Assembly: GCA_002269645.1 (NCBI GenBank)
Contig: NIVC01003272.1
Location: 1,989 to 65,988, forward strand
DNA length: 64,000 bases
Origin: Macrostomum lignano
Lineage: Eukaryota
Reading direction: 5' to 3'
A program made the position numbers and the translations under genes. Shown one piece after another: positions 1 through 64,000 of this stretch. Below the pieces are notes generated by a model, which had not been told where the DNA came from, did not search any database, and saw only the letters and a list, made by a program, of their open reading frames with translations. Each line of letters opens with the position of its first letter. Within the stretch, counting starts at the first letter, position 1.

Positions 1-1700
1 TTTGAAGAAGGTTTACCACCACAGGAGAAGTTCTTTTCAAAGCTAACAGACTCTGGAATCTCTGACAAAGACTATGAGCACGCGAAGCATGTCTATAATT
101 ACTTTAATTGTCAAAAACTTCTTCCAGTATCACCTGCTTTACCTCTTCACAGATGTGTTTCTGCTGGCTGATGTGTTTGAAACCTTCAGATACACCTGGT
201 ACACAGCATATGGCCTCGATCCAGCACATTATGTGTCTCTGCCTGCCACTAGCTGGGAATCTTTGCTTAAAATGAAAAGGATCAAGATCCAGATTGGTAC
301 ATTGAACTTCTTACAGACATTGACATGTACAATTTTGTCGAATCGTCAAAGCGAGGTGGGATCTCAATTTGCCTTAACAGGTATGCAAAAGCAAACAATC
401 CCTACATTGAATCTTACAATAAGGAGCAGCCCTCAAACTACATTACTTACTTGGACGCTAATAATCTCTACGGGTGGGCGATGAGTCAAGATCTTCCAGT
501 TAGAGATTTTGGATGGCTATCAGAATCAAATAAGACTTTTCTTAGGCTGCCATTTATGAGGTTGATGTTTACATTCCACCAGAGCTTCACGACTATTTCT
601 CTGACTTTCCACCCTTCCCAGAGAACATCAAGTGCCCGAAAATAATCGAAACTCCCAATGATAATAATGGAACTTGGCACCTGTCAGGAACAGAAAAAGA
701 ACATACAGAGAAACTAACACAGAATCTAAACAACAAGACACGTTACAAAATTCATTACAAACTGCTTCAGTATTTTATCTCACTTGGTTGCAGGGTCACC
801 AAAGTTCACAGGGCTCTTACATTTACAGAGGAAGCGTGGATGAAACCCTACATTGATAAGAACACCCAGTTTAGGACCAAAGCAACCAACGACTTTGACA
901 AGAACCTCTTTAAGTTGGCAAACAACTCTGTCTATGGCAAGACTCTTGAGAATGAGCGGAAAAGAACAAACCTGAAACTTGTTACCTCATCAGAGCCTGC
1001 TGTTATTCAGGCAAATATGTCAAAGCCAATATTCAAAGAACTCCATATCTTTAATAGCTACTTAGGTGTGATCATATTTTACAAAACCAAGGTGACGCTG
1101 CGCAAGCCGATCTATACAGGTGTCACTGTTCTCGACGAATCAAAACGTCTGATGTACCAGTTCTTCTATGGCATGAAGCAGCAGTATAAGGATAAAATGA
1201 AACTCTTGTACACCGACACAGACAGTTTTATTATGGACATTCAAACAGAAGACATTTATCAGGACATGCTGCAGCAAAAAGATTTGTTTGACTTGTCTGA
1301 GTATGATGAATCTTTCAGGACACAGAATGGCGATCAAGTGTTTGACGCCACTAACAAGAAAGTGATTGGGAAAATGAAGGACGAGATTGCTGGTGACATA
1401 ATCACTGAATTCATTGGGTTGAGAGCAAAGTCCTATTTTGTAAAATGTGAGTCGTCAGACCCAATTAAAAAATCAAAGGGAATTCCGAAACGCGTGTTAG
1501 GAAGGAAATTAATGAAGCTGAATACAGAGACGCCTTGGATTGCAACAAAAAGACATCACATGAGTTCTCAAAGCTACAATCTAAAAACCATATTATTCAC
1601 ACAATTCAGCAGAAGAAGATTGGACTGTCAGGTGCAGATAACAAGAGATTCATTTTTGATGGCAATATTAACAGTCTACCGTTCGGGCACTGGAGATTAG
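1..1700 (+). pseudogene. Protein-primed family B DNA polymerase (pPolB), frameshifted, 5' part outside window
   Basis: Motifs spread over several frames: TDVFLLADVFETFR, YGLDPAHYVSLP, KRGGIS, motif A YLDANNLYGWAMS, YEVDVYIPPELHD, motif B FKLANNSVYGKT, motif C LYTDTDS, KKVIGKMKDE, FIGLRAKSY. Confidence 0.93.
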
Positions 1701-1758: not shown

Positions 1759-2157
1759 ATGACGACAAATAACTTTCTTGAAGATTTGGCTAACGAACTG
1801 GAAATCCCAAACTTTAGAGGAATATTTATGAGGGACACTCTGCCTGATTTTCCTCTAAGAAAAGAATGCGGCATCATGAACTTTGACACCACCCGACAAG
1901 TCAGGATCTCATTGGGTTTGCTGGGTGATTGATCCCGATCGCAAGCACAAGTGTTATTACTTCGATAGCTATGGGACGGCAGTACCAGAAGAGCTAAGAA
2001 ATTATATGAAGGGAAAAAATATAAAGAAATTTATCGCTCAGACTTTATTCTCCAAGGTCTTAGCAGTGATATTTGCGGTGAGCTGTGCATGACTGTTTTG
2101 TATGCAATGACTAAAACGCGAAAATACAAGGAAATTATTCTTACCTGTGCTTCATAA
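1759..2157 (+). pseudogene. Adenain-like (C5) cysteine maturation protease, frameshifted
   Basis: Three frames join to MTTNNFLEDL...FRGIFMRDTLP / GSHWVCW...YYFDSYG / LQGLSSDICGELC, giving the catalytic His, Asp, Gln and Cys in adenain order. Stop at 2155-2157. Confidence 0.85.
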
Positions 2158-2901
2158 GGGTTCATTGTGCATTTCTCGTCGTCCTTCTTGCGAATTTCTT
2201 TCCGACTTTCTTTCCGCATAATGTTGAAGAACTTTCTCGAGTTCATTTCTCAACTGACTCATGTCATCAGTACCGACCATGTTCAAGTTCATTCGAATTG
2301 ATTGTTCATAAAGATCCTGAATGGTTTTGAACTCATCCTCTGAAATGAACTTATCCTCGATTGCCCTTGAAATGTACCCTATGATTGATGTGTGCACCCC
2401 TGTCTCTTTTACTTGCTTCTCCTGTAGCTGCTTTAGTTTTTTTCGCCTGTTTCGCGCTAATGCTCCAGTAATTGCTGAAATAAGTCCACATGCAGCACCC
2501 ACAGAGCCGAGCGGGATTGCGATTGGGGCTGTGATGACTGGCAACGTTGAGACAGCTGCAGCAGATCCAGATAGAACAGACACAGATCCTAGAATCATAT
2601 TGCTGTAGTCGAAAAATTTACAGTGGTTGTCATAGCGCTTAATTTTCTTTGTGTTGTGGAAAATATTTTTTTCAATGTCATCTCGCATTTTTGAATCTCC
2701 ACCAATCGAAATTGTTGAGAGTTACAAGTAATGACGGGGTAAAGTCGTCTGAATATTTACAGTAGGTGCATTCAGATTCGGTGCATTCAGGCTTGGTGCC
2801 AGGTTTTGTGTGTTCGAATTCGGTGCCATTGAGTTTGGTGCTGTCGGTATTTTAGGTTCAGCGTATTGAGACTGATCGTATAGAGAATTTTGTTGGGCCA
2901 T
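2152..2901 (-). pseudogene. Polinton-associated membrane protein (Pro-rich N-terminus, hydrophobic hairpin, ISxAIEDxxISEDEF motif), one frameshift near 2745
   Basis: ATG at 2901 opens MAQQNSLYDQSQYAEPKIPTAP.... A shifted frame continues RRLYPVITCNSQQFRLVEIQKMRDDIE into ORF 2152..2688, which has about 50 hydrophobic Gly/Ala-rich residues followed by RNRRKK. Confidence 0.6.
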
Positions 2902-2935: not shown

Positions 2936-3661
2936 CTATCTGGTTGAAATATCTGTTATTTTCTCTTTGGTAATTTCATCTGTAGAAATGACCGGACGAG
3001 CAGTAGATTCTGCTTCAACAGTATCAATATCAGGAAGATTGTGTACTCCCTCAAGACGACTGATTCTTCTCACCGATTTCTGCCATTCGGTAAAAACTAA
3101 GTCTACAAAGACTTTATTTGCAGTAATTCTTACTTTGATTTGATCATGCAACGCTGTTGACTGAGTCATGAACTCTTCTAAATTCCTCACTTTGCCTGTG
3201 TTGGTTGCGACGTTTTCTCTAATTCTATCATGCAACGCTGTTGATTGAGTCATGAACTCTTCTACATTCCTCACTTTAACTGTGTTTGTGAAAACTCCTT
3301 CTTCAAGAATACGCATCCGCCTATCAGTGGAATTTCCCAGAAGATTAACTGTCGATGTTAACCTATTGATTTGCGAGACTGCCGAAGTTATTTCTGACCT
3401 AACTTCATTAGTTGCGTGTGCAAACTGCGCATAAAGCTTATCACTTTCAAACTTCTGCCTAGCTACTTTTATGCGGAGATCTTCTATGTTTATCTGTAGC
3501 TGGTGCATGGAGCGCTCTAATTGTTTCGGTCTGTTTTTATTCAGTTTGATCTCTAAGATCTTTTCGTCGCTGTTGATATATCGCCTGTCAAGGATGGATA
3601 TTTGAGCTGATGTAAGAGTGCTGTTGCCAGAAATGGATTCACCTGCAAAATTGATAGACAT
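2936..3661 (-). CDS. Coiled-coil protein of the viral element (fibre/spike candidate), 241 aa
   Basis: Intact ORF between viral genes. Heptad-like composition and an internal duplication (KVRNVEEFMTQSTALHD / KVRNLEEFMTQSTALHD). Confidence 0.6.
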   Translation of the reverse strand: MSINFAGESISGNSTLTSAQISILDRRYINSDEKILEIKLNKNRPKQLERSMHQLQINIEDLRIKVARQKFESDKLYAQFAHATNEVRSEITSAVSQINRLTSTVNLLGNSTDRRMRILEEGVFTNTVKVRNVEEFMTQSTALHDRIRENVATNTGKVRNLEEFMTQSTALHDQIKVRITANKVFVDLVFTEWQKSVRRISRLEGVHNLPDIDTVEAESTARPVISTDEITKEKITDISTR

Positions 3662-3677
3662 CTTTTAATAGCAAATT

Positions 3678-4478
3678 TTAAATTACAGTTCTTTTTTCCT
3701 TGTTGATCATGACAAACTGATATGGTTGGTTCCACTTTTCGCAGCAGAGGTTAACGAATTCCTCTTGGGAAATCTTTCTGCTTGAGTTTTTTGTTGGATT
3801 TATAAAATAGGCTGGCGCAATGACCTCATTGTAAAATCTTTTTAGCCTATCCTGTGGAATTGTTGGAAACAGGAGAATCAGATTGCAGTTCCCACGAATT
3901 GTTTTGTTCGGGAGCTCGAACCAGTTTTGTGCAATGTAAATTACATTACAATTGTTATGTCGTCCTCTTGTAAAATAGTTTTCTATCTGCTTCTGTGGGC
4001 CTGCCATACAATCATCAAAGACAATCAAATGCTTTCTCCCTTTTTCTAGCTCATCTGGTTGGGGTAGAAGTTTGGTCTTTGGATCAGCCTGTGGATCTCC
4101 ATAGGTGAACACTTTGGTGTTCTGCCATTTTTCATTGTCTTTAAGGTGCTTTGCATATTCAGCAGCTACAATTTCTGGGTTACTGGGAAGGTTTTATTGG
4201 TTATTAAAACATTGAATAATGTCCTCTTTGTTCAGTTTGTTTTGCAATCCAGAAATCAACATTTTATACTCATCTTGATACAGTGTGGGAGAGTAGATGT
4301 GCAGAGTGTCATAGTCGATAAAGCCAGGTCTAAGAAACATGTTAAAGACTCTAAATGTTTTACCTGAACCTGATGAACCAACAACAATGCATCTGAAGTG
4401 ACTCGGGATTGACTCGTGATGAGAAAACTTAATCTGATTACGCGTCCAGTGAGGATTGAAGTCGTTTGAAAAGTCCAT
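3678..4478 (-). pseudogene. A32/FtsK-like genome packaging ATPase, frameshifted
   Basis: Walker A CIVVGSSGSGKT (ORF 4194..4514), and Walker B LIVFDD, TRGRH and IYIAQ (ORF 3678..4112). ATG at 4478. Confidence 0.9.
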
Positions 4479-4519
4479 TTTTCCTATGATTAAAAAAATT
4501 AAATAATAAATCATTTAGA

Positions 4520-5048: not shown

Positions 5049-6307
5049 TTATTTTTTGTTGAACCGCGAAAGCAGAAGCTCTCTCGCCCTCTTATCGATG
5101 TATTTTCTCTCAAGCATTTTGTCCAGGATGTTGACAAATTCTTTTCTATTCTCATCTTTCATTCCGGTCTTTGCCGCTCCTAGAAGAACCGCTACTCGCT
5201 TGTAGATTTCAGAAATTCCTTTTCCAGTTGAAGGCGGTTGGTCTTGAGGTTGTGGAGTTGGTTGGGCTTGAAGCTGCTGGGGAGGTGATGCAAAAGACTG
5301 CTCACTTTCAGAGATGGAACTGTCATGTGGCGCCTGTCTTTGTTGAGGTGTGAAAACTCTTTGCTTGATTCTGTTCATTCAATCTGGAGAGTGTTGTTCT
5401 AAGTGTTGCCAGTCTGTTGGGTGATCATTTTTATATTTAGCTACTTGAGCTGGATCTGCATTTTCCAGTTGCCTGAGTACTTGTTCTTCTGTGAAATGTT
5501 GCTGCTGTTGTGGCGGTTGTTGTGGTTGTTGTGGCAGTTGTTATGGTTGTGGTTGTTGTTGTGGTTGTGGTTGTGGTTGTTGCTGCTGTGGTTGTGGTTG
5601 TTGTGGTTGTTGTCTTATGATCTCTTCTTGATCCGGCAAACCAAACCATTGTTTAAAGTATTTGTATTTTCTAAACCTGTTCAAGACAATCCCGTTTTCA
5701 TGTAAAATTTTCAAAACACCGTCGTTCTTGAGCATAATTATGTCCCTATCGAGAGCAAAGGTAACAAGATCTTTGTAATTTTCGAACTGCTTTTTAGACG
5801 TTTTCTCTAGATTTTTAGTCATGTAATCAAGTAAAGTTTGAGTAAACTGGATTCTTTTAGTTTTTGCGCCTTTATTGATTAAAATATTTTCCTTTGTCAC
5901 TTCAATGTTGTAATCCGCCGGTTCCCCGGTAATATTTTTTCGCAGGCGCTAATTCCAAAAATATATTTTCCATCATCCAATACGGGGCCAAAAAAGTTAT
6001 CCGTCACTTTCATCTGCACCAGTTGTGCTTCTGGTTGTCCTGGTTCCTGAGCCTGTGGTTGTCCTGGTGAAGATGGGATTTTACCCAATGTGTTTTGCAA
6101 CTGGCTCTCTTGAATATCATCAACTGCTTCCTTCACAGTGTCGAGGTTTTTCTTCGCTTCTGTGTATCCGGGTTTGTGAAATTCGGTGGCTGCTTGGACA
6201 AACTCATTGTAGGATTGTTGCTCCTTATTTATTAGCCCGGTAACTCGTTTCTCTGCTTGTGCTAGCTTCTCCAATTCAGATATCTGCTGTGTACTTTTTC
6301 GCTTCAT
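5049..6307 (-). pseudogene. Polinton structural-type protein, probably one gene broken into three ORFs, with a Q/P microsatellite
   Basis: ORFs 5897..6307, 5541..5900 and 5049..5378 abut. The last two are in the same frame, separated by TAA (5541-5543) and TGA (5379-5381). Motifs FHKP, DNFFG...GKYIFG, GKGI and RVAVLLGAAKTG resemble animal Polinton proteins as I recall them. Confidence 0.5.
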
Positions 6308-6337: not shown

Positions 6338-7576
6338 ATGAACGACCCACTGACACCAGTTTTCTACAAAATTAACAAGCCTATTTTGAGTGATGATAGC
6401 ACAATCAAAGCGACTCAGGTAAGAGTTCCCAGTCAGTAAAATCAGAATGAAACTAATCTTGGTCCTGGTCAAACGCTGACATTCACATACAATGGATGTT
6501 CGTCTTTGGTTAGTGTGCACAGTCTTAAGAGCGGCTTCCATATGACATTTCAATTCAAGACAAAGGTTGGTGCGGATGCGGCTCGTGCTAACGTTGACAA
6601 GCATGATGCGGATGTGGCTCTGATTAGTAACTTTTGGGCGTACATGTTCAAGGAGTTTAGTGTATCGAATGGGAGCACAGAGTTGGAGCGAATCGCCAAC
6701 TTTGGAATTGTCTATGACGCTCATTGTTTGATCGAGAATCCTGAAGGAGACATCAATGACAGTGGCTATAAAAAGAGGAAGAAGAGATACAACTATGCAT
6801 TGCAAGGTGCTGATGATGCTGCTAAGAACCCGCTGTATCGGTCTGTTGATGTATTTGTACCACTAAGATTCATGAGTGGATTCTGTAATACATTTAATCG
6901 ACTGACTAGTAACTTTAGCTACACTTTTAAGATGACTAGAGGTGATCGCAGTAGAGTGTTGTGGACTGGGGCGGATCACACAAGGATGGAGGTGAAGCTA
7001 ACCGGAATCGAGCTGTATTTGGAAGCCATTGAGCCAAAGACCGCACTAAAAGCGGATTATCTCAAGGCAATAGAGAAGGACATTGATGTTGCATACACGG
7101 CCTACATGTGTCGAGATGAGCGAAACGAAACTAGAACAAACATCTGCATTAAAGAGGGATCATGCAGCAATCCAAGGTATATTATTATTAACATGAGAAA
7201 CCCAAATAGCATTATACGCTACATGCATGGAGACGTGCGGTCCATTCAGCATGAAATCAGTGATAATCTTTACCCTGCACTGCCACAAAATGGAGATTTC
7301 AGTCAGAACAAGATTAGCAAATTTTACAGCGAGTTGGTCGACTTGGCTGTGAAAGAGAACAATGGAATTGCTATCACTGCTCTTCAATATGGAACTCTAT
7401 ATCCGATGTTTGGCGCTGATGTGGCTGCCAGACAAATGCCTACTGATAACAGCCCTGTGAATATCGTGACTAACATTGAGAGGACTGTCGCAACACCCGT
7501 GGACTTGTACATTATCTATGCATTTGAGAGGAAGGTGAAGCTTAACATGATCAACAATTCATCCAGTAAAGTTTAA
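6338..7576 (+). pseudogene. Major capsid protein (double jelly-roll/hexon-like) with one in-frame stop
   Basis: ATG at 6338 is in frame with ORF 6506..7576, with a single TAA at 6437-6439. About 412 codons. N-terminal DDSTIK and C-terminal YPMFGADVAARQ...YIIYAFERKVKL match the Polinton MCP pattern. Directly upstream of the penton-like gene. Confidence 0.75.
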
Positions 7577-7595
7577 ATATTTTTTAGGACAAAAA

Positions 7596-8458
7596 ATGGA
7601 AGCGATTGCTGAAAGACTAAATAATATTATTTCGCACTCCAAGGAGAGCATTCCTATTACAATAACTGGGCGAATTAATGACTCAAACGGGATATTTATT
7701 CAAAAATTAGAGCAGGCAATTCGCCTGGATCCAGGTGCTAATTACCATGTCTATCTTAACGACTTCACTGGTTGGTCAAACGTTACCAATGTGTCGGCAG
7801 CAAATAATAAGTTTTATTACAAATGGAAAGGTGCAGCAGCAGACCCTGTGGTATTCCATGTGAGCGCGCAAAGTGTGGATACCTACAATAACTTTCTAGA
7901 AAATGTCTTTACTAAAAGAGGCCATTTTGAGACACCTGATGCGAGTAAGCCAGAGAAGAAACTGTTCCCTGTCAAACTAACCTATGATCTCACTGTAATG
8001 AGAGTGGTCATGCAAGTTCACAAAGATGCGGAGGTTGAGTTTAAAGATGACACTTGGTATAGGGAATTGGGATTCGAGAAGAAAGTTTATAAGGCAGAAT
8101 CCGCGGCACGGACCGCCACTCAAGCATCGGGGCCGTTAGCATGGCCCGGGAAAGTGTACGCGGTTTGTTCTTAGCACCCAATATAGCAGACATTGTAAAG
8201 GGTTTGAATATTCTAATCAGAACTAATCTCAGTCTTGATTGGGTATTTAAGGGAAAGCGAACTAATATTTTGTACAACATCTCCAACTCTGTAGCTGGAG
8301 GACAGATGGTGGTAGAGAAACCCAATCCAGTGAAAAGAGTTGTATTGAGTAATAAGGAAATTCACGAGATTGTGCTACAGTTTGAGACTGAAGATGGTGT
8401 AGGTGTTGATTTCAACGGGGAAGAGTTTGTATTGACGTTGATCATTGAGAGAATGTAA
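7596..8458 (+). pseudogene. Minor capsid protein (penton, single jelly-roll), frameshift near 8150-8175
   Basis: GWSNVTNVSAANNKFYY in the 5' ORF. NILIRTNL and EIVLQFETEDGVGVDFNGE in the 3' ORF 8141..8458. Confidence 0.75.
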
Positions 8459-8702: not shown

Positions 8703-8885
8703 TTTTAGAGAAAATTTAGATTTTTTTCGGAGGATGAGCACCCTGCGCTGATGATTTAAAGTCTTAGGGATCTGGTTTCGCGTTGCGGATTGAATGTGGG
8801 GAGAAGAATGCAGATTATTTTCTGATTGTTTCGAAGATGCTATGGGTGGATGTCAGTGGATTATGTAGGACACTTGTTATGCTCT

Positions 8886-9238
8886 GATAATATAGATGGA
8901 TTTAGGGGGATTATGGATGACGTTTTGTGAGCGAGTAGGACCCTGATTCAGGGATAATATGGATGGATTTAATACGATTATGTTCGAAGTTTTCAGAGCA
9001 AGTGCGAACCCTCCCCTTTTTTCAAGATTCTGTCAGGGATAATGTGGATGGATTTAATGGGATTATGGAGGAGGTTTTGTGGGCGAGTGCGACCCCCCTT
9101 TTTTCTGATTCTGTCAGGGATAATATGGATGGATTTAGGTGGATTATGGAGGACGTTTTGTGAGCGAGTGCGACCTCCCTTTTTTTCTGATTCTGTCAGG
9201 GACAATATAGATGGATTTAATGGGATTATGGAGGAGGT
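8886..9238. repeat. About 80-bp degenerate tandem repeats, probable subterminal/TIR region of the Polinton
   Basis: Unit tctgtcagggataatatggatggattta...gagcgagtgcgaccNcccttttt occurs about 4.5 times. Confidence 0.85.
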
Positions 9239-12200
9239 GAAAAATTTTGTCCCAGAAGCCCCCTCATGCATTCTACTAAAGCCACAAAAAGAAAAATGTA
9301 GCGCGTTATCCCATCACCAAAATAGCTTGAAGCTGAAAACATCGAAATCGAAACGCATGCAACGGTTAGTCGAAGTTAAGGAAATGATCGCTAAATCGCA
9401 GAATTTTTTCAATAAATTAAAGTTTGGCCAAAAATTTCAACTACTCAGTTCTCAAGCCTCCTTTCGTGATTAGCGGACGCAGCCTCGCAATCGGCCTCGT
9501 GGAGGCCTTGCCAACCAGCTGCACTTTCGCAACTCGCACCCGTCTCTCCGCGGCAGCCAGCAGATGGTCGCGAATCGAGCCGTCTCGCCTTGCATGCAGA
9601 TGCGCCGCTTTGAGCTCAAGAACCTGGTCGCCATGGTCGGGTCTAATCGTCTGACCGCCGATCGTTCCTCATTCATGCTAACGACTCTGCTCCGACCAGT
9701 CACCCTTTGTCCATGCCACCAGCTGTCAACCTCCGTCAGCTGCTTCGCTGAAGTTCCTCGAGACAACGCATCGGCTGGATGGAATTCGGTCGTGACACAC
9801 CTCCACTGGTCCGGATCTGTGACAGACTTGGTCTCTCTGATGCGGTTCGCAGCAAACGGCTGGTCGACTTTAAAGGTGCACTTGTTCCGATCGCTTCTCC
9901 ATTCTACACCAAGCGTCTTGATGGATGGCAGCGGTGTGCCTTCCAATGTTACTTCGGCTACTCGATCTTCTGGTGGCACTCTGCTCAACAGTTCTCGCGA
10001 ATCGGACATCCATTTCCTGGGGTGCATGACTGCACGCTCCCAGCGAGTCTTCAACTCTTGAAGCAGCTGGATCGCCTCAGCCTCTGACCCGACCGAATCT
10101 AAACAATCGTCCATATAGGTGGAGTTGAACAGCGTCTGCAGCTAATGGCAGCTCTTCTTTCAGGCGTTCCGCATGCTCACGAACTACGAACTGAGCAAGA
10201 AACGGCGAGCTCGAGTTGCCGAAAACGATGCGGTTGCTCTCAAAAATTTAAACAGGCTTGCTGGAGTCCATCTCACGCCGTAGAAAGCTATGCGTCGGCC
10301 TGTCCTCCGGTGCCATTTCGATCTGGAGGTACATCTCGGAGATGTCACAAGCCCCAGCCACCGCATCTCTCCTGAAGCAAAGCAGAACGTCAAACAATTC
10401 TCGCTGAAGCTTCGGCCGTGGGAAGACCAGAGAATTTAAGGACTTTTCGTTCCCGCCCGCCGAGGCATCGAAGACGATGCGAACCTTTGTCGTCAGCTTG
10501 TCGAATCGAATGATCGGAAAATGTGGCAGAAAGCACCTTCTGGCTGAGAACCCCTCTACTGCAACGTGCCGAATGTAGCCTTGCTGCCCATATCGCTCTA
10601 GGCATGCTTGTATTGCTTTGCCACCTCCACATCTTTCTTCAATCGGGTCTCTGTGTTGCAAAGCCGTTGCAAAGCTATCTCATAGTTATTCGAGCGAACT
10701 TTCGCCTCTGGCTTCCACGGAATTCCCACCTGGTATCGGCCGTTAGTTACCTTTAACGAAGCTTGCTCGACTGCAGCTTGCTCGTCCGCTGTCCAATTTT
10801 GGTCCTGAGCTGACCAGATTTCTTCGACCTCCCGGAACTTACGTAGCACTGGTGACAGCATCTCCTCGCTGGTGAAACAGAAAAAGGTGCTGGCCAAGTT
10901 TGTCTGGTGCTGAATCTGTTCTACTTGACCCACACCTGTCCATCCAAGGGGAGTCAAACGTGCCTGTGGCTCCTTAGGGCCACCGCGAACTTCTCCGTAG
11001 GACACATGTAGCTCCGCATGATCCACTCCTATCAGCAGGTCTATGAGATGCGGCGCATGGAGCTGAGGAAATGGAATATGCTCCAGATGTTTCCAATCCG
11101 CTGCTGTCGTCTGCCAATCCGTGGCCTTCAGCTTCCCGGTGACGCTGTCTGTCGTGAATGCCGTGATCGGACGACTCAGACTTCCATCTGAGCGTCATCA
11201 GAGCGTCATCGTAACCGGAGCTGTCAAGAATTTCTCTGTCTGTCCGTTCAAAACGTTCACTTTCACTCGCTCCACATTGCCCTCCAGTCCCAGAGCTTCA
11301 ACAATCTCTGCATTCACATACGTCTTTGTACTCGCGTCGTCCAACAGTGCGCTCACTTTCACAACACAGCTGCCTGCCTTGAGAACCACTGGAACAGTTC
11401 GCAGCGACGTTGCACCTCCACTTCCTGCCATCATCGTTACGGCGGCTCCTTTGCGACCCGACTCAGCGCTCTTTTTTACTCCTTCTGCCGACGAATTTCT
11501 CTTCGACTCAGTTTTTCCCGCCTCGTCAGAATGCAGCAAGCGCGGTGGTGAAACTTGTTGCATTCCTCAATCTCACATCGACGTCCATGACGGCATATCC
11601 GAGCAGCATGACCGCGAGCTAAGCAGCAAAAGCACGATTTTGAATCACGCGCAGCCTTCCAGCGATCTTCAGCTGACAGCTGTCTAAACGTTGGACACTT
11701 CCACAGCTCATGTTGATCTTGACACAGCATGCAAGATTTTGACGGAGACATTTGCTGATGATCTACAAGAAACGTTCTGGACCGCGTCTCCTTAACCTTC
11801 TCTTCACTCGTCACACCGTGCACAATCTACATGTACATGGCTTCTGTCTGGAAGGCGGCTTCTATCAGCACCCACTCACGCAAAATCTTTACGCTCGCTT
11901 GCCTATGTCCTTCGAATAGCCAACGTCGGTAACGCGCCACCATCTGCTCAGGGAGCTTCTTCTGCAACTTTGCGTAGTCAATAGCCCGTCAGTCAATTCT
12001 GAGACCTTACCAGACTCTTCGAGATTTACAACTGCGACATCTAACCGATTAGAAAATTGCTTATGCTCTTTTGCATTGGTGAAGCGGATGAGTGGAAAGT
12101 TATCGAGCTCTTCAAGATACAGAGCATCGGCGGCTGCCCCTAAATTCGCGTTCCAATCTGTCTTTTGCAGCCTCGTAAGCAGCGGCAGAGTGACCCAGAT

Positions 12201-12704
12201 GTTCGAATAATTTCAAAGCCGGCCCTTGAAGATACTGTCGGAGTTGAAGCAATTTGAACTCTGGTGTGGCAGGAGCTCTATCAATACGAGCAGTGAAGGC
12301 GGCTTTCCAAGATTCGTACTGCTGCTTTTCGCCGCCGAACTTTAGAATCTCTACACGCCGAAGCATCTTCCAAAGATCTTTTTGCCAACTCGGCTTCACT
12401 GCTGCTAGTCTGAGAATGGCCCGCCTTTGCCTTTGTCTCGAGCTTCTTCTGTGGCTTCTTGCTGAAGGAGCTAGTCATAGAATGCGTCAAGCAGCTTCAC
12501 GCACTCCTCGTGTGCTGCAGTGGCTGCATCGCACGCTTGCTGGATCGCTCCATGATCGGTGTCGCTCTGTAGCAACAGTACCAGCCGGTTTCGAGTTCTA
12601 GTTGCTGCAGACTTCGTTCTTGCTTTCACTCGTCGAAACTGTTCGATGCGAAGCCGCTCCTCAGTGCTGATCTCTTTTTTCATCTTCTGAGCAGCCAGTC
12701 TGCT

Positions 12705-12870
12705 CGTGGCTGGCCATTCGTGATTCAATTCGTGGCTGGCCATTCGTGATTCAATTCGTGGCTGGCCATTCGTGATTCAATTCGTGGCTGGCCATTTGTG
12801 ATTCAATTCGTGGCTGGCCATTTGTGATTCAATTCGTGGCTGGCCATTCGTGATTCAATTCGTGGCTGGC
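12705..12870. repeat. 26-bp tandem repeat (about 6 copies) in the BEL 5' leader
   Basis: Near-identical copies of gtggctggccattcgtgattcaattc. Confidence 0.9.
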
Positions 12871-12880
12871 TATTTACCTG

Positions 12881-12898
12881 AACCACGCTCTGCTACCA
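12881..12898 (-). promoter_or_regulatory. Primer-binding site complementary to initiator tRNA-Met
   Basis: Minus strand TGGTAGCAGAGCGTGGTT lies just after the LTR CA end and matches the tRNAiMet 3' end (...CUCUGCUACCA). Confidence 0.75.
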
Positions 12899-13244
12899 AA
12901 ATGTTGAAAAGAGAATCCAAAGAATCGAGAATGCAGCACTTGGCGGCTAGCCTCGCAATCGACAATCGTAGCAGACAACAAATCAAAAGGGTACGCGCAG
13001 TCTAGTCTTGCTAGGTATATTTATTCTCAATTTATTAAGTAGAAGGCGGGGTTGACACAGGATTTAGCGAGGGGGGTTGTAAATGTGCATGAATTACTAT
13101 GTACTCGTACGTTACCAATCAGAATGGGGGGTGAGAAAGGTGGCGTGAGGCGCGGAGGGGGGCAGGTAAAATAGGCAAATGATGAGTAATAGTACAGACG
13201 TACAATGAAATAAGCAAAACCCTTTACTCTTCAATCCAGTCCAG

Positions 13245-42217: not shown

Positions 42218-45149
42218 ATATATATATATATATATAAGTGCATGAGTGTACATATACAAGTTTGTTTGCCAGACATATAGTACAGTATGTAGAGATTGTG
42301 TAGCCTATAGGGTATAGGCTACAATGCAGTTTAGTATTGCAGTGTGCAATGCTACATAATTGAATGATAAATCAATCAATAAAGAGAATGAGGGCAGGAG
42401 AAAGGGAAAAGAAATGAGGAACTTCCATTTTTCAATAAGTATAACCACGCATGAGGTGTGCTACCCCCCCCCCCTGGTCCTTTAGTGTGGTGGTGCATAG
42501 GTAAGTTGCAAATCTGGACAAAACTAAGTTGCACTGGATAGGTAAAATTTTGAGGTTGGGCATTTATGTTAAATATGCATGACATTTGTGCTTAGATGTA
42601 AATCTTATGGTAGTCCTTGTGTTAGGTTTATCGCTCAATTGTTGCAAAATTTAATAACTCTATTAATAACCAGACTAATTCATAAAATAAAATAACGAAT
42701 AATAAGAGAACTATAAATGATTTGACATTGCAAAGTTACAAACATTGAGAAGTATAACATTTTAGAGCTTTTTATTCTCAGAAAAATTGGTGTACAACTG
42801 CTTAGAAATTTGCTACTATAGAACTGCTTGGATATTAGTGACACTTGCTCAGCAACTATGTAAAACTGCTTATAGACAAGCACTAAACTGCTAAGAAGCT
42901 GAGTGAAGCCATGAATAAAGCCATAAATTCCATGAATGCTAGCCTAGATATGAATAGACTGAACTGATAGTATGGCAACCTAGGTTTGAAGCTTAATAGT
43001 AAGAATTTTTTTAATGAAAACTTTAAATAATTTAAAGGAATAATTAAAAAGACATTATTTTTGCACTTGATAAGCCAAGACTCATAGGGATAATTACTAG
43101 AATGCTATGGCTATTAAGGGATTTGTTAGGAAGAGTAGGTTAAACCATAAATTAATTGACCTGTCAAACATAAAGACTCATTGGGGAATTGCTGAAATAT
43201 CAAGATTTACTAGAGGAATTGCTGAGAATTCAAGTCTTAGGGGCAATTGCTGAGATATCAAGGTAGAGGATAGAAGCTACATGTAATTAATTTAAAAATT
43301 TTACTACATTCTTTGTTTTCTCCCTAATGGGGGCATAAATTGTTAGAATTGACAAATCTAAATTTATACATTGCAATAAGGAATACAATACTATATTATA
43401 TAGATAGTATCAATATAAGTATAAAAATAAATAGATATAAAAACATTTAATTTTCTCTTATTGAATATTAATTATTTAGGCCTACTCAAATTTTATGTCA
43501 TGAATATATAAAAACATAGGCCTATATGAATAAGCCTATGTAGTAGGCCTATTATTACTATTTTATTAGATTAGATTAATAAAGTATTATATGGATATAA
43601 ACTATCACCAATATAGGCCTAGGCCTATATTGTGTATATATATTTTAAATGCATAACAAGAACAATTTAAACAATTGTAGACAAAATTTACAGGTTAGGA
43701 AATTTTTAAAGTAAAATTTTTAATTAATTTCATTTTTTATTTGTAAATTGGTAAACAACTCTATTCAGCCTACTAAGCTTGATGGCAGTTCTCTTTGTAT
43801 AGGAGTTGGACAAATGAAGAGTAACAAGGGTTTGAAAAAACTGTCCTATAGTTAGACAGTGTCTTGCTTTTTGGATGAAATAACTGACAAAAAACTACTA
43901 ATAATCAATATCAATACTAACAGAGCTGTAAAAGGCAAGTCATCATAAGATGAGCATTGGGTCCGCCCCTAATCAAAAGCAATTACAGATTTTTTTGTGC
44001 TTAAAATGAAAACCGCCATATTCCAAATGTATTTTTCAGTAAAACCTGCCTCCTTCAAAACTTCCATAGAAATATGCAACCCTCCTTAAAAAAAGTTTCA
44101 AGAAACGTATAGTCCACTCAGTCAGCCGTGTCCCACTCGTGGTGAGGCCATTCTATCCTCGGAAAACACGGCCTCGCAGCCCAGTAATGAATGCAGCGGT
44201 GTAGCGCTGCATGTATTTCTGGATTTATTTTACGTTGTATTTAATACATTTGCGCACGTATGCACCAGCCGGTTCTATAGGCTAAGCCACGTGTGATATT
44301 AGTAAACAAGTGTACAATTTAAATTGCATTTTAGCTAGCTAATAAAATAAGCCTGCCTATACATAAAATTTTACCACTTGCCAATTAGTTAGGCTTACAG
44401 ATTTATTTATTGCTCTTTAGACTTTGGAATCATTTAAAATTTACATAACTATCCAATTTTTTGTTTAGCCTAGGCAAAATGCATATTTAATAAGCTTTCT
44501 AGGCTTCTAAAATCTAATAGCCTAGCAATAGATAAAAACTACCTACCTAGTATAGTAATTTTTTTACCTAATAGTAATACAAAGCCTTCTATTTCAAATC
44601 ATTGATTATTTTCTACTATTGACTGATAGGTCTAAGTCTAAAATATTTTCTTTTCTTTTGTGTTATAAAGCCTTTATGCTATATTAGAATATGTTTTTTA
44701 ATGCTAATAAGAATCTTTTATAACTTTGGATCTAAAATTCATTTGGTCCTTCTTTAATTTAAGTTGCTTAGGCCTATCTTTTTATAAGACCTAAGGGGGC
44801 TAAGCCTAGCCTATGTTTATAATGTTTTATATTAAAATGTTTTAATAATATTGTTTTATAGGAATCAAAAGTAGGAATATAACTATATAAGATAAAGCAT
44901 GCCTAGAATAAAAATCTTTTTGAAATAATTAGCCATAGTCTAATCAACTATAGATTAGGCCCAACTAATAACTATTCATTGGCACTATATAAAGTCATGA
45001 TATCCCTCTAGTTGCGACCTTTTCTTCCCCTTTAATGCTAGGCCTTACTTTTTCTTTCTAGCCCATATTCTCTTCTCTAAAGCCTTACCTTCTTTTCCCT
45101 TCAGTATTTCCCTCCTCTCTAGTCCCACAATGTTTTCCCATTAAATTCT

Positions 45150-46870
45150 TACCCTTTTATCATAATCTCGCCCTCCTACCTTCTAGCCCCACCTTCCTAG
45201 CCTTTAGTCCCACTATCCTACCCTCCAGCCCCACCCTCCTTTCCTCTAGCCCCACCCTCCCCTCCAGCTTCCACCCTCTTCTCTTCTCTAGACCCATCCC
45301 TTCTCTCTAGCCCCACCCCTTCCCTCTAGCCCAACCCCTTCTTTCTAGCCCCACCCTCTTCTCTTCTGTAGCCCCACCCCTTTCCTTCTAGCCCCACCCT
45401 CCTACCCTCTAGCCCCGCCCTCCCTTCTAGCTTCTACCCTCTTCTCCCCTCCAGCCCCACCCTCCTACCCCCCAGCCCCACCCTCCTACCCTCTAGCCCC
45501 ACCCTCCTACCCTCTAGCCCTGCCCTCCCTTCCAGCTTCCACCCTCTTCTCCCCTTTAGCCCCACCCTCCTACCCTCTAGCCCCACCCTCCTCTCCAGCT
45601 TCCAACCTCTTCTCCCCTCCAACCCCACCTTCCTTCCCTCCAGCTCCACCCTCCTTCCCTCCAGCCCCACCCTCTTCTCTTCTGTAGCCCCACCCCTTTC
45701 CCTCCAGCCCCACTCTCCTTCCCTCTAGCCCCGCCCTCCCTTCCAGCTTCCACCCTCTTCTCCCCTCCAGCCCCACCCTCCTACCCTCCAGCCCCACCCT
45801 CCTACCCTCCAGCCCCACCCTCCTACCCTCTAGCCCCACCCTCCCAGTTTCCAACCTCTTCTCCCCTCCAGCCTCACCTTCCTCCTCTCCAGCCCCACCC
45901 TCCTTTCCTCCAGCCCCACCCTCCTACCCTACTGCCTCACCCTCTCCTCCAGCTTTTACCCTCTTCTCTTCTGTGCCCCACCCCCTTCCTTCCAGCCCCA
46001 CACTCCTACCCTCTAGCCCCACCCTCCCAGTTTCCAACCTCTTCTCCCCTCCAGCCTCACCCTCCTCCCCTCCAGCCTCACCCTCCTTCCCTCTAGCCCC
46101 ACCCTCTTCTCTTCTGTAGCCCCACCCCTTTCCCTCCAGCCCCACTCTCCTTCCCTCTAGCCCCGCCCTCCCTTCCAGCTTCCACCCTCTTCTCCCCTCC
46201 AGCCCCACACTCCTACCCTCTAGCTCCACCCTCCCATCCAGTTTCCAACCTCTTCTCCCCTCCAGCCTCACCCTCTTTTCCCCTCCAGCCCCACCTCCCT
46301 TCCCTCCAGCCCCACCTCCCTTCCCTCCAGCCCCACCTCCCTTCCCTCCAGCGCCACCCTCCTACCCTACTGCCTCACCCTCTTCTCTTCTGTAGCCCCA
46401 CCCCCTTCCTTCTAGCCCTACCCTCCTTGCCTTCAGTCCTACCCTCCTTCCCTGCAGCCTCACCCTCTTCTCTCCGTTAGCCTCATCCTCCTCTCTAGCC
46501 CTCACCCTTTCTCCTCTCTAACATCACCCTTTCTCCTCCAACCTCGTCCTCCTACCCTCTAGCCTCTACTCTCTTCTTTCCTTCAATACCCCCTCGTCCC
46601 CTCTAGCCCTACTATGTCCTCCAGTTGAATCCTCACCCTTTTCTCCCCACAAACCTACCCTCTCCTTCCTTCCAGCCCCTATCCTTCTCTCCAGGACCTA
46701 CCCTTGTTCTCTTTCAGCCTCGCTCTCATGTCCCCTCCAGCTCCACCCCCTTCTTCCCCCAGCCCCACTCTCTCCTCTTCAGCCGCATCCTCTCCTCCCC
46801 TCCAGCCTCACCCTCTCCTACCCCAGCCTCAACCTCTTCGCCCCTCCAGCCCCACCCTATTTTTTTATTC
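45150..46870. repeat. Pyrimidine-rich degenerate satellite with about 21-bp periodicity
   Basis: Repeated ccccaccctcctaccctc(t/c)ag variants. The plus strand is almost all C/T. Confidence 0.9.
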
Positions 46871-46960
46871 AGCCTCACCCTTCTCGTAGCTCTGCTAATA
46901 AAATTTAATTATCCTTTTCAGAAGTGAAAAAGAATATTTCTCTTTTCTCTCTTCAGAATG

Positions 46961-47830
46961 TCCTCGCACCGGTCTAGAGGTCATACCACGTGCCGGAGCG
47001 ACTGGTCGCAGCAACCATAACTCTCTTCTAGGAGACCCTGGCCGCCGTGGTGACACCTGACGGACTATCCGACCTGTTCAACACGACCTCAGGGATGCTG
47101 CAAGGCGACACGCTTGCGTCCTACCTTTTCGTGTTGGTGCTCGATGGGGTGCTACGTAGGGCCCTGCCAACAGACGAGGACGGCTTCCTACTGTGCCGGC
47201 AAACAAGCAGCCGCCAATCGGAGAAGCGGCTGTCACTCATGGGGTCATGGGTTACGCCGACGACCTGGCGCTGCCCGCCTCTATGGCTGAGGGAGCCCAG
47301 CGCATGCTAGACAGCCTGGTTGGTGGCAGCTGCGGCATCGGTCGGGCTAGCGGTGAGCATCGAGAAGACGGAGGTGATGACTGTACCTGCGGAGCTGCCT
47401 ATCAAAATCACCTGCTGGGACACCCAACGGTCATGCAGCAGCTCTACCTCGCTGCGCGTGCTTCACGTACCCCGGCGATCTTGTGCCCAGTGTCCAGGAG
47501 GACTTGGCGCGACGCAGGGGCCTGGCCTGGGCGGCCTTCCGCTCCATCCGAGTCGTCCTGCAGAACGCCGCGCTGCCAGACCGCTGCGATCACCTAGCGA
47601 GACCCTCCGCAGGCGAAGACATCAGCTGGCGGGCCACACCATCCACGCGGAGGCCTACTGTTCTCAACCAGTGCAAGACGTCCTGCTGCTCACGATGCAG
47701 GGCCCCTGGCGCCGGGGCTACGGCCGGGCGAGTCGCGTCGCGGATTGCCTGTTGGATGGCGCTGGGGTGATTGGCCAGGCGCACGCTGTTGCCGCCTTTA
47801 GAGAGCTCACACTGAGAGAACTGATCTGAC
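46961..47830 (+). pseudogene. Non-LTR retrotransposon reverse transcriptase fragment (RTE-like)
   Basis: AAVVTPDG, GMLQGDTLASYLFVLVLD, GYADDLAL, GLAVSIEKTEVM and DLARRRGLAWAAF across shifted frames. Confidence 0.85.
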
Positions 47831-48409
47831 ACCGCCTCCCATTGTGAACTGTTACTTTTAACTCAACAATACTGGGTGTGCCTTGTTATTATTTTCTCTT
47901 CAAAATAATTTGCCTAGCTGCGAACTGTGATGGTGCATATCGCGTACTCGCAATTCAATAGCTTATACTTATTACTGTTTTACTTATTGCTTTCCGATGT
48001 CAATGCTATTTATTGCGTGTAATATTATCGCAAAATTCAAGTTCGGGCGTCATTATTTAGCTACTGCCGGTGTTCTGCATTACAATTATTATAGTACTTC
48101 GTATCTACTGACGTAACATTGTACCAAAAATTTTAGATTGCGTCTTGCGTGGCGCCAAAACCAATCTTGTTGAATGCTACTAGCGTAATAGCCGTTTGAA
48201 TCGCTTGAAATACATTGTAATGCCATGCTGTATTGCTTTTGACGATCTAAATGACACTGGCTAGACTTCACTGATCCATATGCTCCTCAAGCAAGGTATA
48301 TGGAAAGCAGATTGAGCAGCAAACTTAGTGTTTGATTGATAGAGATTTTGTATAGTTGGATCTTTGGATCACGGATAAAACCAAGGAATCTAGATCTGGA
48401 GGCATGCGG

Positions 48410-49100
48410 GGGGAACGGCGGAAAGCAGCAGAGCTGTTGGGGAGAGCAGCGGAAAGCAGCGTAGCTGTTGGGGGGAGCGGCGGAAAGCAGCAGAGCTGTT
48501 GGGGAGAGCGGCGGAAAGCAGCGTAGCTGTTGGGGAGAGCGGCGGAAAGCAGCGTAGCTGTTGGGGGAGCGGCGGAAAGCAGCAGAGCTGTTGGGGAGAG
48601 CGGCGGAAAGCAGCGTAGCTGTTGGGGGAGCGGCGGAATGTAACGGAGCTGTGGGGAGCTGCGGAAAGCAGCGGAGCTGTTAGGGAGAGCGGCGGAATGC
48701 AACGGAGCTGTGGGGGAGCTGCGGAAAGCAGCGGAGCTGTTGGGGAGAGCGGCGGAAAGCAGCGGAGCTGTGGGGGAGCGGTGGAATGCAGCGGAGCTGT
48801 GGGGGAGCTGCGGAAAGCAGCGGAGCTGTTGGGGAGAGCGGCGGAATGCAACGGAGCTGTGGGGGAGCTGCAGAAAGCAGCGGAGCTGTTGGGGAGAGCG
48901 GCGGAATGCAGCGGAGCTGTGGGGGAGCTGCGGAATGCAGCGGAGCTGTTGGGGAGAGCGGCGGAATGCAGCGGAGCTGTGGGGGAGCTGCGGAATGCAG
49001 CGGAGCTGTTGGGGAGAGCGGCGGAATGCAGCGGAGCTGTGGGGGAGCTGCGGAATGCAGCGGAGCTGTTGGGGAGAGCGGCGGAATGCAACGGAGCTGT
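48410..49100. repeat. GC-rich 30/31-bp minisatellite with alternating variants
   Basis: ggggagagcggcggaaagcagcggagctgtt alternates with gggggagctgcggaatgcagcggagctgt. Confidence 0.92.
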
Positions 49101-49329
49101 TGGTTTGATAACAGCTGACGAGGCTGACAGGCTTATTTGCATAGAGCGATGCTATGAGAATGAATTCAGTCAGTCAGTTTAAGGCAGAAAGCTGGCTCTC
49201 TGTCTCTGCCTACCCTTCAACTGAATCGAGTGAATTCGCAGTGCCTGAAGTGCCCGAAGTTGGTTCTACATGTACGTATATATATTGTTTTGGCAAACTG
49301 GATTACAAAAAGGTACGGCTCATATATTA

Positions 49330-51299
49330 CAGTATACTATACATGTATTTGAGTGGCGAAAGGGTGACGGTTTAAATGTTGCTAGGGCTACGTGTATGAG
49401 ATTCGGCCGGTGCTCTACTACCTTGAATTCATGCCCGTAAGGCTCAGCCTCCGTTCATTTACTAATTATTTAATGTCGCGAGAGGGGACTATCAGTCCCC
49501 AACATCCTGCATGGTATTTAGGGGGCCTAGGGTCTTGGCCTTTGGGGCCTTCGACAAGTGACTGCCGCAATTTGACTGGGGACTATTGAACTCTAAACAT
49601 TGGCACCTCAAGATTAGAGCGGCGGCACTCGAACCAAAATAATGTTGAAGGACTACAGAATACATGTATATCATAGAATAGAGAGAAGCTAGTTCATTTA
49701 GACATTTTTTAATCGCAATCCCCAATTTTCATTTTTATTTTCATTTCAAAATCTCAATCCCCGATTGTTAATTCCCTTATATCCCTGATTCCTAATGTTG
49801 AAATTTGAATCCAGCTTGTTGATATCCCTCAGAGGGGAATGATGAGGGGATGCTTCTGAGGACCGAGTTGCTGCATGCTTTAGCTATATACAACTAAATA
49901 TGATCCTGTTTTAGGAGTAGAGTAGAAATATGTGAGAGCAGAGAAGAAGACAGAAAATAGTAGGGGAAGTTTAGGGGATATAGGGCATCGGCAACTTTTA
50001 CGAGAAACTTGTAAGACTGGTCGGGTCAGGTATGATATTCTTAAGTTGAATATGACGTAAGTTGGAACTGGGGCACCTTTTACGAAATGTTTGAAAAGCT
50101 GCCATGCAGCTACATGTATACGAGATCATAGAACAGAGAGAAGCTATAGCTCATTTAGCCCAACCTCAAGAGCCAGAATTCCGAGTGGCAGTCGAAAAAT
50201 TCCGCCCAGCCACTGAGACCATCAGTTCTGCGGCGCGCCAAGGGAGCCGACAAAATGATGATCATCGCATGCTACGATAGTTTTGGAATTATTCTCATCC
50301 ACCGCATTTCTGAGGGCCAAAACATCAACCAAAAGTTTTATCGGAGCTTCATAACCCACCATCTTCGGCCTGCCCTGCGCAACAAGCGGTCACACAGACC
50401 CTGGAACTTGGTCCACTCCTTCCGCACGACAATGCCAGTTCGCACACAGCCCGCATTGTGCAAGACCTACTGCGGGACTACCGTGGGAGGTGCTGCCTCA
50501 TCCTACTTACTCCCCAGACCTCACGTACAGTCCCTGCGATTTCAGCCTTTCCCAAAGCTTAAGAACCAGCTTCAAGGGTATTCAAGGGAACCAGCATCCA
50601 GGCAGCGAGATCGGCCGCATTGCAAAAGACCTGTGCGAATCTGGCGCTGCTGACGGCGTCCACAAGTTGCCTGGCTGCTGGTAGCGCACGATTCAAACCA
50701 ACGGAAGTTATATTGAAGGTTTTTGAGCTGTTCACTGTTCTGACACTCGTTTGTTGAAAATAAATAAGTGTTTAATGAAACTTTTGAGATGACCCTCGGC
50801 ATAGATGGAAGAATATCTTAAATGCCCTCAAGCTATATGTACACATTCAGAAGTTACGTGCTCTTTTAGCATGGTACATGTAATAGATACTGTACATGTA
50901 TAACATTGATACATTTGAGTGTAAGATGCGTTACATGTACGTAGCTACATGTATATATACAGCATGTTTTCTGTAGTCCTTCAACATTATTTTGGTTCGA
51001 GTGCCGCCGCTCTAATCTTGAGGTGCCAATGTTTAGAGTTCAATAGTCCCCAGTCAAATTGCGGCAGTCACTTGTCGAAGGCCCCAAAGGCCAAGACCCT
51101 AGGCCCCCTAAATACCATGCAGGATGTTGGGGACTGAGAGTCCCCTCTCGCGACATTAAATAATTAGTAAATGAACGGAGGCTGAGCCTTACGGGCATGA
51201 ATTCAAGGTAGTAGAGCACCGGCCGAATCTCATACACGTAGCCCTAGCAACATTTAAACCGTCACCCATTCGCCACTCAAATACATGTATAGTATCTGT
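49330..51299. mobile_element. Pair of about 330-bp near-identical inverted repeats enclosing 1.3 kb
   Basis: 49,334-49,660 is the reverse complement of 50,969-51,295, with only a few mismatches seen. Confidence 0.75.
50150..50798 (+). pseudogene. Mariner transposase 3' fragment with right TIR
   Basis: KMMIIACYDSFGII, GQNINQKFY, HDNASSH, EVLPHPTYSPDL...PCDF. Ends with aaacttttgagatgaccctcg. Confidence 0.85.
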
Positions 51300-51307
51300 C
51301 TTCTGTC

Positions 51308-63300: not shown

Positions 63301-64000
63301 GCATTTTAATGCATAAACTTGCGAGCATCTTTAGCAGGCAGTGAACGTACACTCGATATTTCAATGCTTAAAATCAGAAAGTTTCAAACACTAACTGTTG
63401 CTCGAGTTTTGAACTTGAGAGAGAGACTTATATTGCTGGAAAGATCTTGCTGCAATGAGTTCGGGGATATAAGTTTTTTGCTTTAAATATGAAAATTAAA
63501 TTCACAGCATTCAAGAAAAGATTTTCATACTTTTAGCTTTCTGCAAAGATTTTTCTCATTTTGGAGTTCAATGGGGGTTCGACCGACCCCCCAATAGTTG
63601 GTAGCGGGGTTCAATTTCTAGCTGCACTGCGTATTGGAAGGGGGTCGGTGCTGTGTATTGGAGGGCGATTTAGATTGCGCAATCTTTTTGTTAACTTTAA
63701 CCGAGGCTGATACTGACTGCCTGAGAAATAAGTTGCGCAATTTAATTGGTTCAATGTTTTTACGGCGCCTTTCAACACGCAGCTGTGTGTAGCTCTAACC
63801 CTAACCCTAACCAATGAATTCTGAGAGCTGGGCTGTTTGACGTAGAAATTTCGATTTAGTCCAGTTTCACGGAGAGGATTTCTATTTCGCGGAGAATATT
63901 TCGATGGTGTTCAGTTTCACGGAGAGGATTTCGATAGTGTTCAGTTTCACGAGACGATTTCTGTTGCGCGGAGAGGTGTTGGAAAATGGGATTCCGCTGA
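51308..64000 (+). repeat. Helitron-like head-to-tail macrosatellite, units 1.2-2.8 kb, runs off the window end
   Basis: Head atatactaaagttg(a/g)...gtttgtctgtctgt recurs at 51335, 52711, 55170, 57916, 60675 and about 62888. From 52711 on, each head is preceded by a CTCC-GAA-GGAG hairpin. Units contain TAACCC tracts and 30-bp subrepeats; the long units also carry GA-rich blocks of about 0.7-1.1 kb. Confidence 0.8.

Follow-up and report, generated by a model that had tools for sequence, protein, structure and literature searches.

A predicted hairpin membrane protein of Polinton-type viruses with late-domain-like motifs: a candidate ESCRT-recruiting egress adaptor

A broken gene near the start of the window (the whole 64,000-nucleotide stretch of Macrostomum lignano DNA analysed here) belongs to a family of predicted hairpin membrane proteins, whose N-terminal tails carry PTAP motifs of the TSG101 type and YPxL/I motifs of the ALIX type. 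The observations below establish the gene, both motifs, their enrichment across the family, the freedom of their order and spacing, and the viral setting. Judged from the counts in homologous proteins, the late-domain-like motifs are a real, family-wide signature. The family tail very probably binds ALIX and TSG101 and, given such binding, a role in egress is likely rather than a role in another ESCRT-dependent step. Overall, we lean slightly towards a role as an egress adaptor, with ESCRT recruited for release without lysis, similar in working to NS3 of bluetongue virus.

The window copy and the element around it

The first ~9 kb of the window contain a decayed element of the Polinton/adintovirus type, as indicated by the gene content read from ORFs and by a Pfam search (Table 1). 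The polymerase B pieces had no match in the Pfam search; part of this polymerase recurs in L048, a sister element elsewhere in the genome, where the adjoining frame matches DNA_pol_B_2 (E 5.5e-10). Similarly, the Pfam search gave no match for the protease piece at 1880-2089, and the gene that it resembles on the viral contig L031 (14491-14916) matches Peptidase_C5 (E 2.6e-4). The second piece of the packaging ATPase had no Pfam match, and the probable minor capsid gene had no significant one. No retroviral-type integrase was seen in the window, and the contig starts just 1,988 bases before it. Contigs of public runs that were guessed to be RNA span nearly the whole element and cannot show expression.

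Several further features were observed along the window. Upstream of the membrane-protein gene, the minus strand encodes a 242-aa predicted coiled-coil ORF (2939-3664), in which a unit of ~25 residues is duplicated and for which the Pfam search returned no significant match. ORFs with Gln/Pro-rich low-complexity repeats lie between the ATPase and capsid genes (5049-5948, minus strand). At the right end of the element (8850-9300), short repeated units with a much higher contig depth may constitute a subterminal repeat region. A degenerate LTR retrotransposon adjoins the element (9470-12900, minus strand), and its translations resemble Gag-Pol of the BEL/Pao type. The strong GC skew over long stretches at 44000-64000, together with many stop-free frames, probably reflects simple or tandem repeats.

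Table 1. Features of the membrane-protein gene and of the surrounding element (positions in the window)
Feature	Position	Strand	Basis or remark
Broken gene copy; predicted hairpin membrane protein of ~240 aa, late-domain-like tail at the N-terminus	2152..2901	-	
PTAP motif, TSG101-type	2836..2847	-	in frame with ATG 2901
LYPVI motif (YPxL/I), ALIX-type	2730..2744	-	in a frame other than that of PTAP and the hairpin
First break, frame change	2745..2765 (near 2750-2760)	-	pairwise alignments with three other copies
Second break, frame change	2683..2695 (near 2690)	-	beside a run of five identical bases
Start of first long helix; family-conserved FRL..I	2688..2711	-	
Basic stretch before the hairpin	2632..2649	-	
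Uncharged Gly/Ala/Ser-rich hairpin, ~50 residues; two predicted helices and a short Pro-containing turn	2455..2598	-	
Basic stretch after the hairpin	2431..2454	-	
Conserved C-terminal turn motif A..D..IS..EF	2329..2373	-	
Protein-primed DNA polymerase B, in pieces	47..1700	+	recurrence of one piece in sister element L048
Adenovirus-type protease-like gene, in pieces	1759..2150	+	resemblance by eye to L031:14491-14916
A32-type packaging ATPase, two pieces	3681..4514	-	Pox_A32, E 7.3e-4 (first piece), under the curated cut-off
Double jelly-roll major capsid protein	6440..7573	+	DJR-like_dom, E 4.6e-5, under the curated cut-off
Probable minor capsid gene, two pieces	7551..8455	+	position and resemblance by eye to L031:4220-5020

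An initial annotation of this locus had proposed both motifs, followed by a hydrophobic hairpin and a basic stretch. All of these were found on the minus strand, with basic residues on either side of the hairpin (Table 1). It had also assumed a single frameshift, and in this respect it needs correction, as the window copy switches frame twice. PTAP shares its frame with the hairpin ORF (2155-2721), a stop lying in between, and LYPVI is in a different frame together with the first helix. The pair of arginines read ahead of LYPVI is a product of the broken junction; unbroken copies carry other residues there. LYPVI, previously regarded as an imperfect match, fits the YPxL/I motif, which is reportedly the form bound by ALIX, and is the regular and better conserved of the two signals. 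The tail of the window copy also deviates near 2190-2200. At the second break, the contigs of all four public runs differ from the window, and the depth of the differing contigs equals the whole depth; thus, this break may stem from a slip of the assembly or from a private mutation.

Motif conservation in genomic copies and distant relatives

The Macrostomum genome contains 279 candidate loci, 40 of which were scored and were 92-100% identical; the best 30 were examined, including the window copy and two identical pairs. PTAP was present in every one of these 30 copies, and LYPxI was in frame with it in 24. Sixteen of the 30 hold PTAP, LYPxI and the hairpin in a single frame that is open from the tail to the end, 15 of them starting with ATG. 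Whether the upstream segment belongs to the same gene had been raised as a point to check, and these open frames indicate that it does. Among the open copies, LYPxI varied at the x position only (V, L or I) and PTAP was fixed, and the spacer between the two motifs differed by in-frame indels among the genomic copies (29, 30, 33 and 34 residues). The crude ratio of non-synonymous to synonymous changes in the 15 distinct open copies was 0.49 for the tail, 0.28 for the core and 1.44 for the C-terminal end, ratios that derive from small counts and from copies selected for being open. PSAP also turned up upstream of several copies, in short frames of the opposite strand, and was dismissed as chance.

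The host genes encountered in the same genome bear on these numbers. Three near-identical loci were seen for TSG101, for ALIX and for a second gene with an ALIX V-domain (L038-L040 and L032-L037), suggesting polyploidy or uncollapsed haplotypes; the copy counts of the element are inflated accordingly.

For distant relatives, the motif-free 189-residue frame (2155-2721) was used as the query. The 88 representatives at 50% clustering and one further protein gave 89 relatives; 19 had fewer than 12 residues ahead of the first helix and were set aside, leaving 70 for scoring. The pattern [LIMVF]YPx[LIV] was found in the tail of 60 of these 70 proteins (mean 0.4 and maximum 3 over 1000 composition-preserving shuffles), and P[TS]AP in that of 26 (mean 0.28 and maximum 3 over 1000 shuffles). 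Both motifs were present in 24 proteins, at least one in 65 and neither in five. Outside the tail of the same 70 proteins, the former pattern was never found and the latter was found once. PPxY was at chance level, with one occurrence in the 70 relatives and one in the 112 proteins of the second set described below. Thus, the motifs, whose conservation had been suggested as a check, are kept in distant homologues as well as in unbroken copies.

The arrangement of the two motifs was free: PTAP stood ahead of YP in 14 proteins and behind it in 10, at distances from the first helix of 8-49 residues for PTAP and 9-54 residues for YP. Such free order and variable spacing are typical behaviour of short linear motifs. 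On a quick tree of 69 rows, PTAP was scattered: its state changed 16 times (20.6 on average after shuffling), and well-supported branches forced at least six of these changes. Some clustering was also apparent, as 7 of 500 shuffles were equally low. Like this clustering, three further counts speak against the egress reading: the strict form LYPxL was present in only 21 of the 70 relatives, [LM]YPx[LI] in 28, and PTAP was absent from 44. Since the homologues share a common ancestry, their motif counts do not represent independent events, and YPx[LIV] may simply be one trait inherited from an ancestor. One subfamily (P0095-P0123), located on megabase-long contigs, has mostly either kept YPNL or lost both motifs; its members may have decayed or been domesticated by the host.

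With a closer subfamily as the query, a search yielded 979 clusters at E 1e-10 or better, with named matches from the bivalve Dreissena and the annelid Capitella. Among the matches listed, 116 proteins were new, and 112 of this closer-knit set were scored. The YP motif was present in 106 of the 112, P[TS]AP in 68 and the looser [TS]AP in 104 (shuffle mean 5.7), ASAP and ATAP being the main variants, although this set is biased because its query contained tails. The ASAP of an iridovirus protein has been reported to bind Tsg101 (PMC4880917, in the accessible part of the text).

Predicted fold, viral contigs and host partners

An AlphaFold2 model based on an alignment of 79 sequences (mean pLDDT 82.9, pTM 0.65) comprised an unstructured tail of ~58 residues (pLDDT 50-60) followed by helices at residues 60-117, 124-182, 187-208 and 212-240, with a hairpin turn of ~6 residues. 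The uncharged run had a median length of 50 residues and a median Gly/Ala/Ser content of 43%, and a 19-residue Kyte-Doolittle peak of at least 1.6 was found in all 79 aligned members. The median net charge of these members was +3 before and +4 after the hairpin. Basic flanks at either side of the uncharged segment suggest that it forms a hairpin in the membrane and leaves the two protein ends in the cytosol. As the hairpin is only mildly hydrophobic, it may fall short of crossing the membrane completely.

The closest Foldseek matches of the model were unnamed invertebrate iridovirus proteins (E 1.2e-6 to 7.1e-6, high rmsd), followed by SLATT-labelled giant-virus proteins (E 3.6e-4 and weaker, high rmsd). 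Among the profiles, SLATT_5 matched one of the 79 members (E 3.4e-6), and CyanoTRADDas_TM gave a match at E 0.014. Weak profile matches to pore-forming hairpins were obtained for the RTX N-terminal domain (13 of 79 members) and ApoL (2 of 79). Neither gasdermin nor Adeno_PX was among the 25 of 29 families listed for the 79 members. Foldseek against the PDB found nothing at E 0.001 or better, the matches being those generic to long helices, and a VIA fold search of the PDB likewise gave generic helical matches (best Z 12.1, among BAR, IpaB and coiled-coil chains). A sequence search of the PDB returned AopB (E 8e-4) and weaker matches; we read the AopB match as a likeness between hydrophobic hairpins. 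The ESM Atlas contained only clusters of hypothetical proteins and one auto-named RTX cluster, with recognition scores under the reliable mark, and the cluster look-up of the family gave no informative names. In the model, the helix-hairpin-helix build would resemble that of the SLATT-labelled proteins with two transmembrane segments in Polinton-like viruses, adintoviruses and Nucleocytoviricota.

The gene is also carried by other viral contigs. L031, a complete-looking Polinton-like viral contig of 17.6 kb, contains the membrane-protein gene with both motifs alongside a packaging ATPase (E 6e-8), a PLA2-like gene, a double jelly-roll capsid gene (E 2.9e-47), a protease-like gene and a long polymerase-like ORF, the last of which had no match in the Pfam search. 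Among its 18 ORFs, the membrane-protein gene is the sole carrier of a motif of either kind. Across three viral contigs, the ORFs with motifs numbered 1 of 18, 1 of 20 and 2 of 12; on the first two contigs the membrane-protein gene alone had them, and on the third one other gene did as well. In addition to the same gene and DNA_pol_B_2, the sister element L048 carries an rve integrase (E 4.2e-9) at 5 kb from the membrane-protein gene, a PLA2-like gene and a pX-like gene, Adeno_PX matching a separate ORF. On two other contigs, L045 and L046, the gene lies alongside DUF5767, glycosyltransferase 90, helicase and RING genes, a content that we read as that of giant-virus fragments. In the family genes of these contigs (L045:5716-6330 and L046:4424-5053), the two motifs are fused as YPTAP. 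The gene adjoining the family member on both contigs is presumably PCNA-like, and the Pfam search gave no match for it.

The putative partners are available in the host, whose genome encodes both TSG101 and ALIX, each at three loci. On our assumed assignment of the pocket-lining residues of ALIX and TSG101, alignment to the human proteins showed conservation of the ALIX stretch that holds the pocket Phe, with the V-domain split over exons, and of Y68, N69 and M95 in TSG101. Two pocket positions of the host TSG101 UEV domain (L039:1366-1875) differ from the human protein (Y63 to H and F142 to V), and these substitutions may alter the PTAP preference. A complex prediction for the host TSG101 UEV domain and the 58-residue tail of an unbroken copy scored 0.00 with controls that did not fold, and it carries no weight.

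Proposed egress role, alternatives and known systems

In the proposed mechanism, the disordered N-terminal tail would bind ALIX via YPxL/I and TSG101 via PTAP, and the bound proteins would bring ESCRT to the membrane in which the hairpin lies. New capsids could then bud through this membrane or be packed into vesicles and be released without lysis. The long amphipathic helices might provide a surface for oligomerisation or capsid contact, and the plasma membrane, the late endosome and the nuclear envelope are candidate sites of action. Given that the family keeps two budding signals of the HIV type, these viruses would likely leave cells wrapped in membrane. An enveloped particle would require a fusogen for entry; none was seen among the ORFs listed for the window, L031 and L048. 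The resemblance of the core to SLATT-type predicted pore formers, which have been proposed for entry or lysis, counts against an egress role.

The motifs might also bind ESCRT for the protein's own traffic or for manipulation of the host, a reading that we consider unlikely though worth weighing and that rests on the same motif evidence as egress. The protein could, for example, be a viroporin or membrane modifier sorted to multivesicular bodies or exosomes, drag receptors to lysosomes, or time lysis through control of the membrane repair by ESCRT. The SLATT-like fold matches and the weak RTX, ApoL and AopB matches to pore hairpins are consistent with such functions, and the accessible text on polisuvirus SLATT proteins suggests lytic egress or abortive infection (10.64898/2026.10.13.758929). 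Nevertheless, two motif classes per tail in either order correspond to the layout of budding proteins (PMC8402826, as far as the text is available), and the matches to pore families, weak as they are, probably stem from a hydrophobic hairpin of a generic kind.

A role in entry appears rather improbable; here the protein would travel with the virion and form pores for escape from the endosome, its motifs steering it to ALIX-rich late endosomes. For SLATT proteins of PLVs, such an escape through pores has been put forward as a hypothesis (PMC12220804, accessible part), and the L031 gene sits among genes of the virion module. However, PLA2-like proteins in L031 and L048 and a pX-like protein in L048 are already present and belong to the entry factors proposed in the available text of PMC8502044, and an incoming protein in the endosome lumen would be out of reach of cytosolic ESCRT before insertion.

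It likewise appears rather improbable that the motifs bind a partner outside ESCRT, such as an adaptor mu subunit via YxxPhi or some other protein, or that they fold back on the helices. YPxL is compatible with YxxPhi, and the residue ahead of the Tyr is Ile nearly as often as Leu (25 and 28 cases). By contrast, Pro occupies the +1 position in 65 of 74 YxxPhi matches, which disfavours a generic YxxPhi sorting signal; a second, independent ESCRT motif co-occurs; and the variable motif spacing argues against a structural role. That the motifs arose by chance in a tail with much Pro, Ala and Asn, or were created by joining the frames of a window copy that is broken twice, is hardly credible and largely refuted, given that 16 of 30 copies are open and that shuffles never exceeded 3 of 70.

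The egress adaptor proposed here has its nearest functional counterpart in orbiviruses. Bluetongue virus NS3, with two membrane spans, polybasic motifs and both PSAP and PPRY, drives non-lytic release, according to the accessible text (PMC7409164). Like orbivirus NS3/NS3A, as described there, the Polinton protein would be a viral membrane protein of small size, in which basic motifs flank two hydrophobic segments and late domains lie in the N-terminal part; moreover, NS3 serves a capsid that is classed as non-enveloped (PMC7409164), a further likeness to the Polinton case. Unlike NS3, which combines PSAP with PPRY and has a 21-residue glycosylated loop, the Polinton family pairs P[TS]AP with YPxL/I and has a turn of ~6 residues, and it belongs to an integrating dsDNA virus whereas NS3 belongs to an RNA virus. 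The Orbi_NS3 profile matched one of the 79 members (E 0.0022), and the likeness to NS3 proposed here is one of working, with kinship no more than a possibility. HIV-1 p6, EIAV p9 and VP2 of the quasi-enveloped hepatitis A virus similarly provide the PTAP and YPXnL classes in a disordered tail (PMC8402826, accessible part). In these Gag and VP2 cases the motifs lie on the structural protein itself, whereas those of Polintons lie on a separate predicted membrane protein.

SLATT-like genes in Polinton-like viruses, with pores proposed as their function, are already known from the accessible literature. Adintovirus maps show a SLATT-labelled gene twice, beside the Hydra and Stylophora rows (PMC8502044, supplementary Fig. 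S2, in the part available); judged by its label, this may be the Polinton gene. The accessible parts of the SLATT papers treat pores, entry or lysis and leave late domains unmentioned. Membrane, envelope and egress are unmentioned in the available text of a coral polintovirus preprint, in which proteins of unknown function are frequent (10.1101/2023.10.06.561300), and that of PMC11071308 mentions none of membrane, envelope, egress, lipid, SLATT and budding. No report that connects late domains or ESCRT with Polintons or adintoviruses was found in the accessible text of literature outside subscription journals.

Other evidence of Polinton dealings with membranes, and possibly of an envelope, comes from the nematode Maverick fusogen (MFUS-1/PC1) as described in the available text. 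This large class III entry fusogen of nematode elements is unrelated to the hairpin protein in size and build. Whether envelopment is confined to nematode Polintons "remains to be investigated", in the words of an accessible passage of the preprint (10.1101/2023.08.22.554363). The description of Polintons as a non-enveloped class, from which the initial annotation argued, thus stands as an assumption only, because nematode Polintons carry a fusogen and the envelopment of others is left open in print.

A widespread gene with a clear ESCRT signature makes the question of Polinton envelopment testable and bears on how these elements exit cells and pass between hosts. More tentatively, and with some doubt, we propose that a large group of animal Polintons and adintoviruses, together with some giant viruses that share the gene, possess an egress protein dedicated to recruiting ESCRT and exit wrapped in membrane. 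If true, these integrating DNA viruses would have a first exit mechanism outside nematodes, and a SLATT-like pore scaffold would have been turned into a budding adaptor convergent with orbivirus NS3. The ESCRT signature of the gene also suggests that the missing Polinton particles should be sought in extracellular-vesicle fractions. An iridovirus has been reported to bud via TSG101, ALIX and Nedd4 (PMC4880917, accessible part), which fits the iridovirus fold matches of the Polinton protein.
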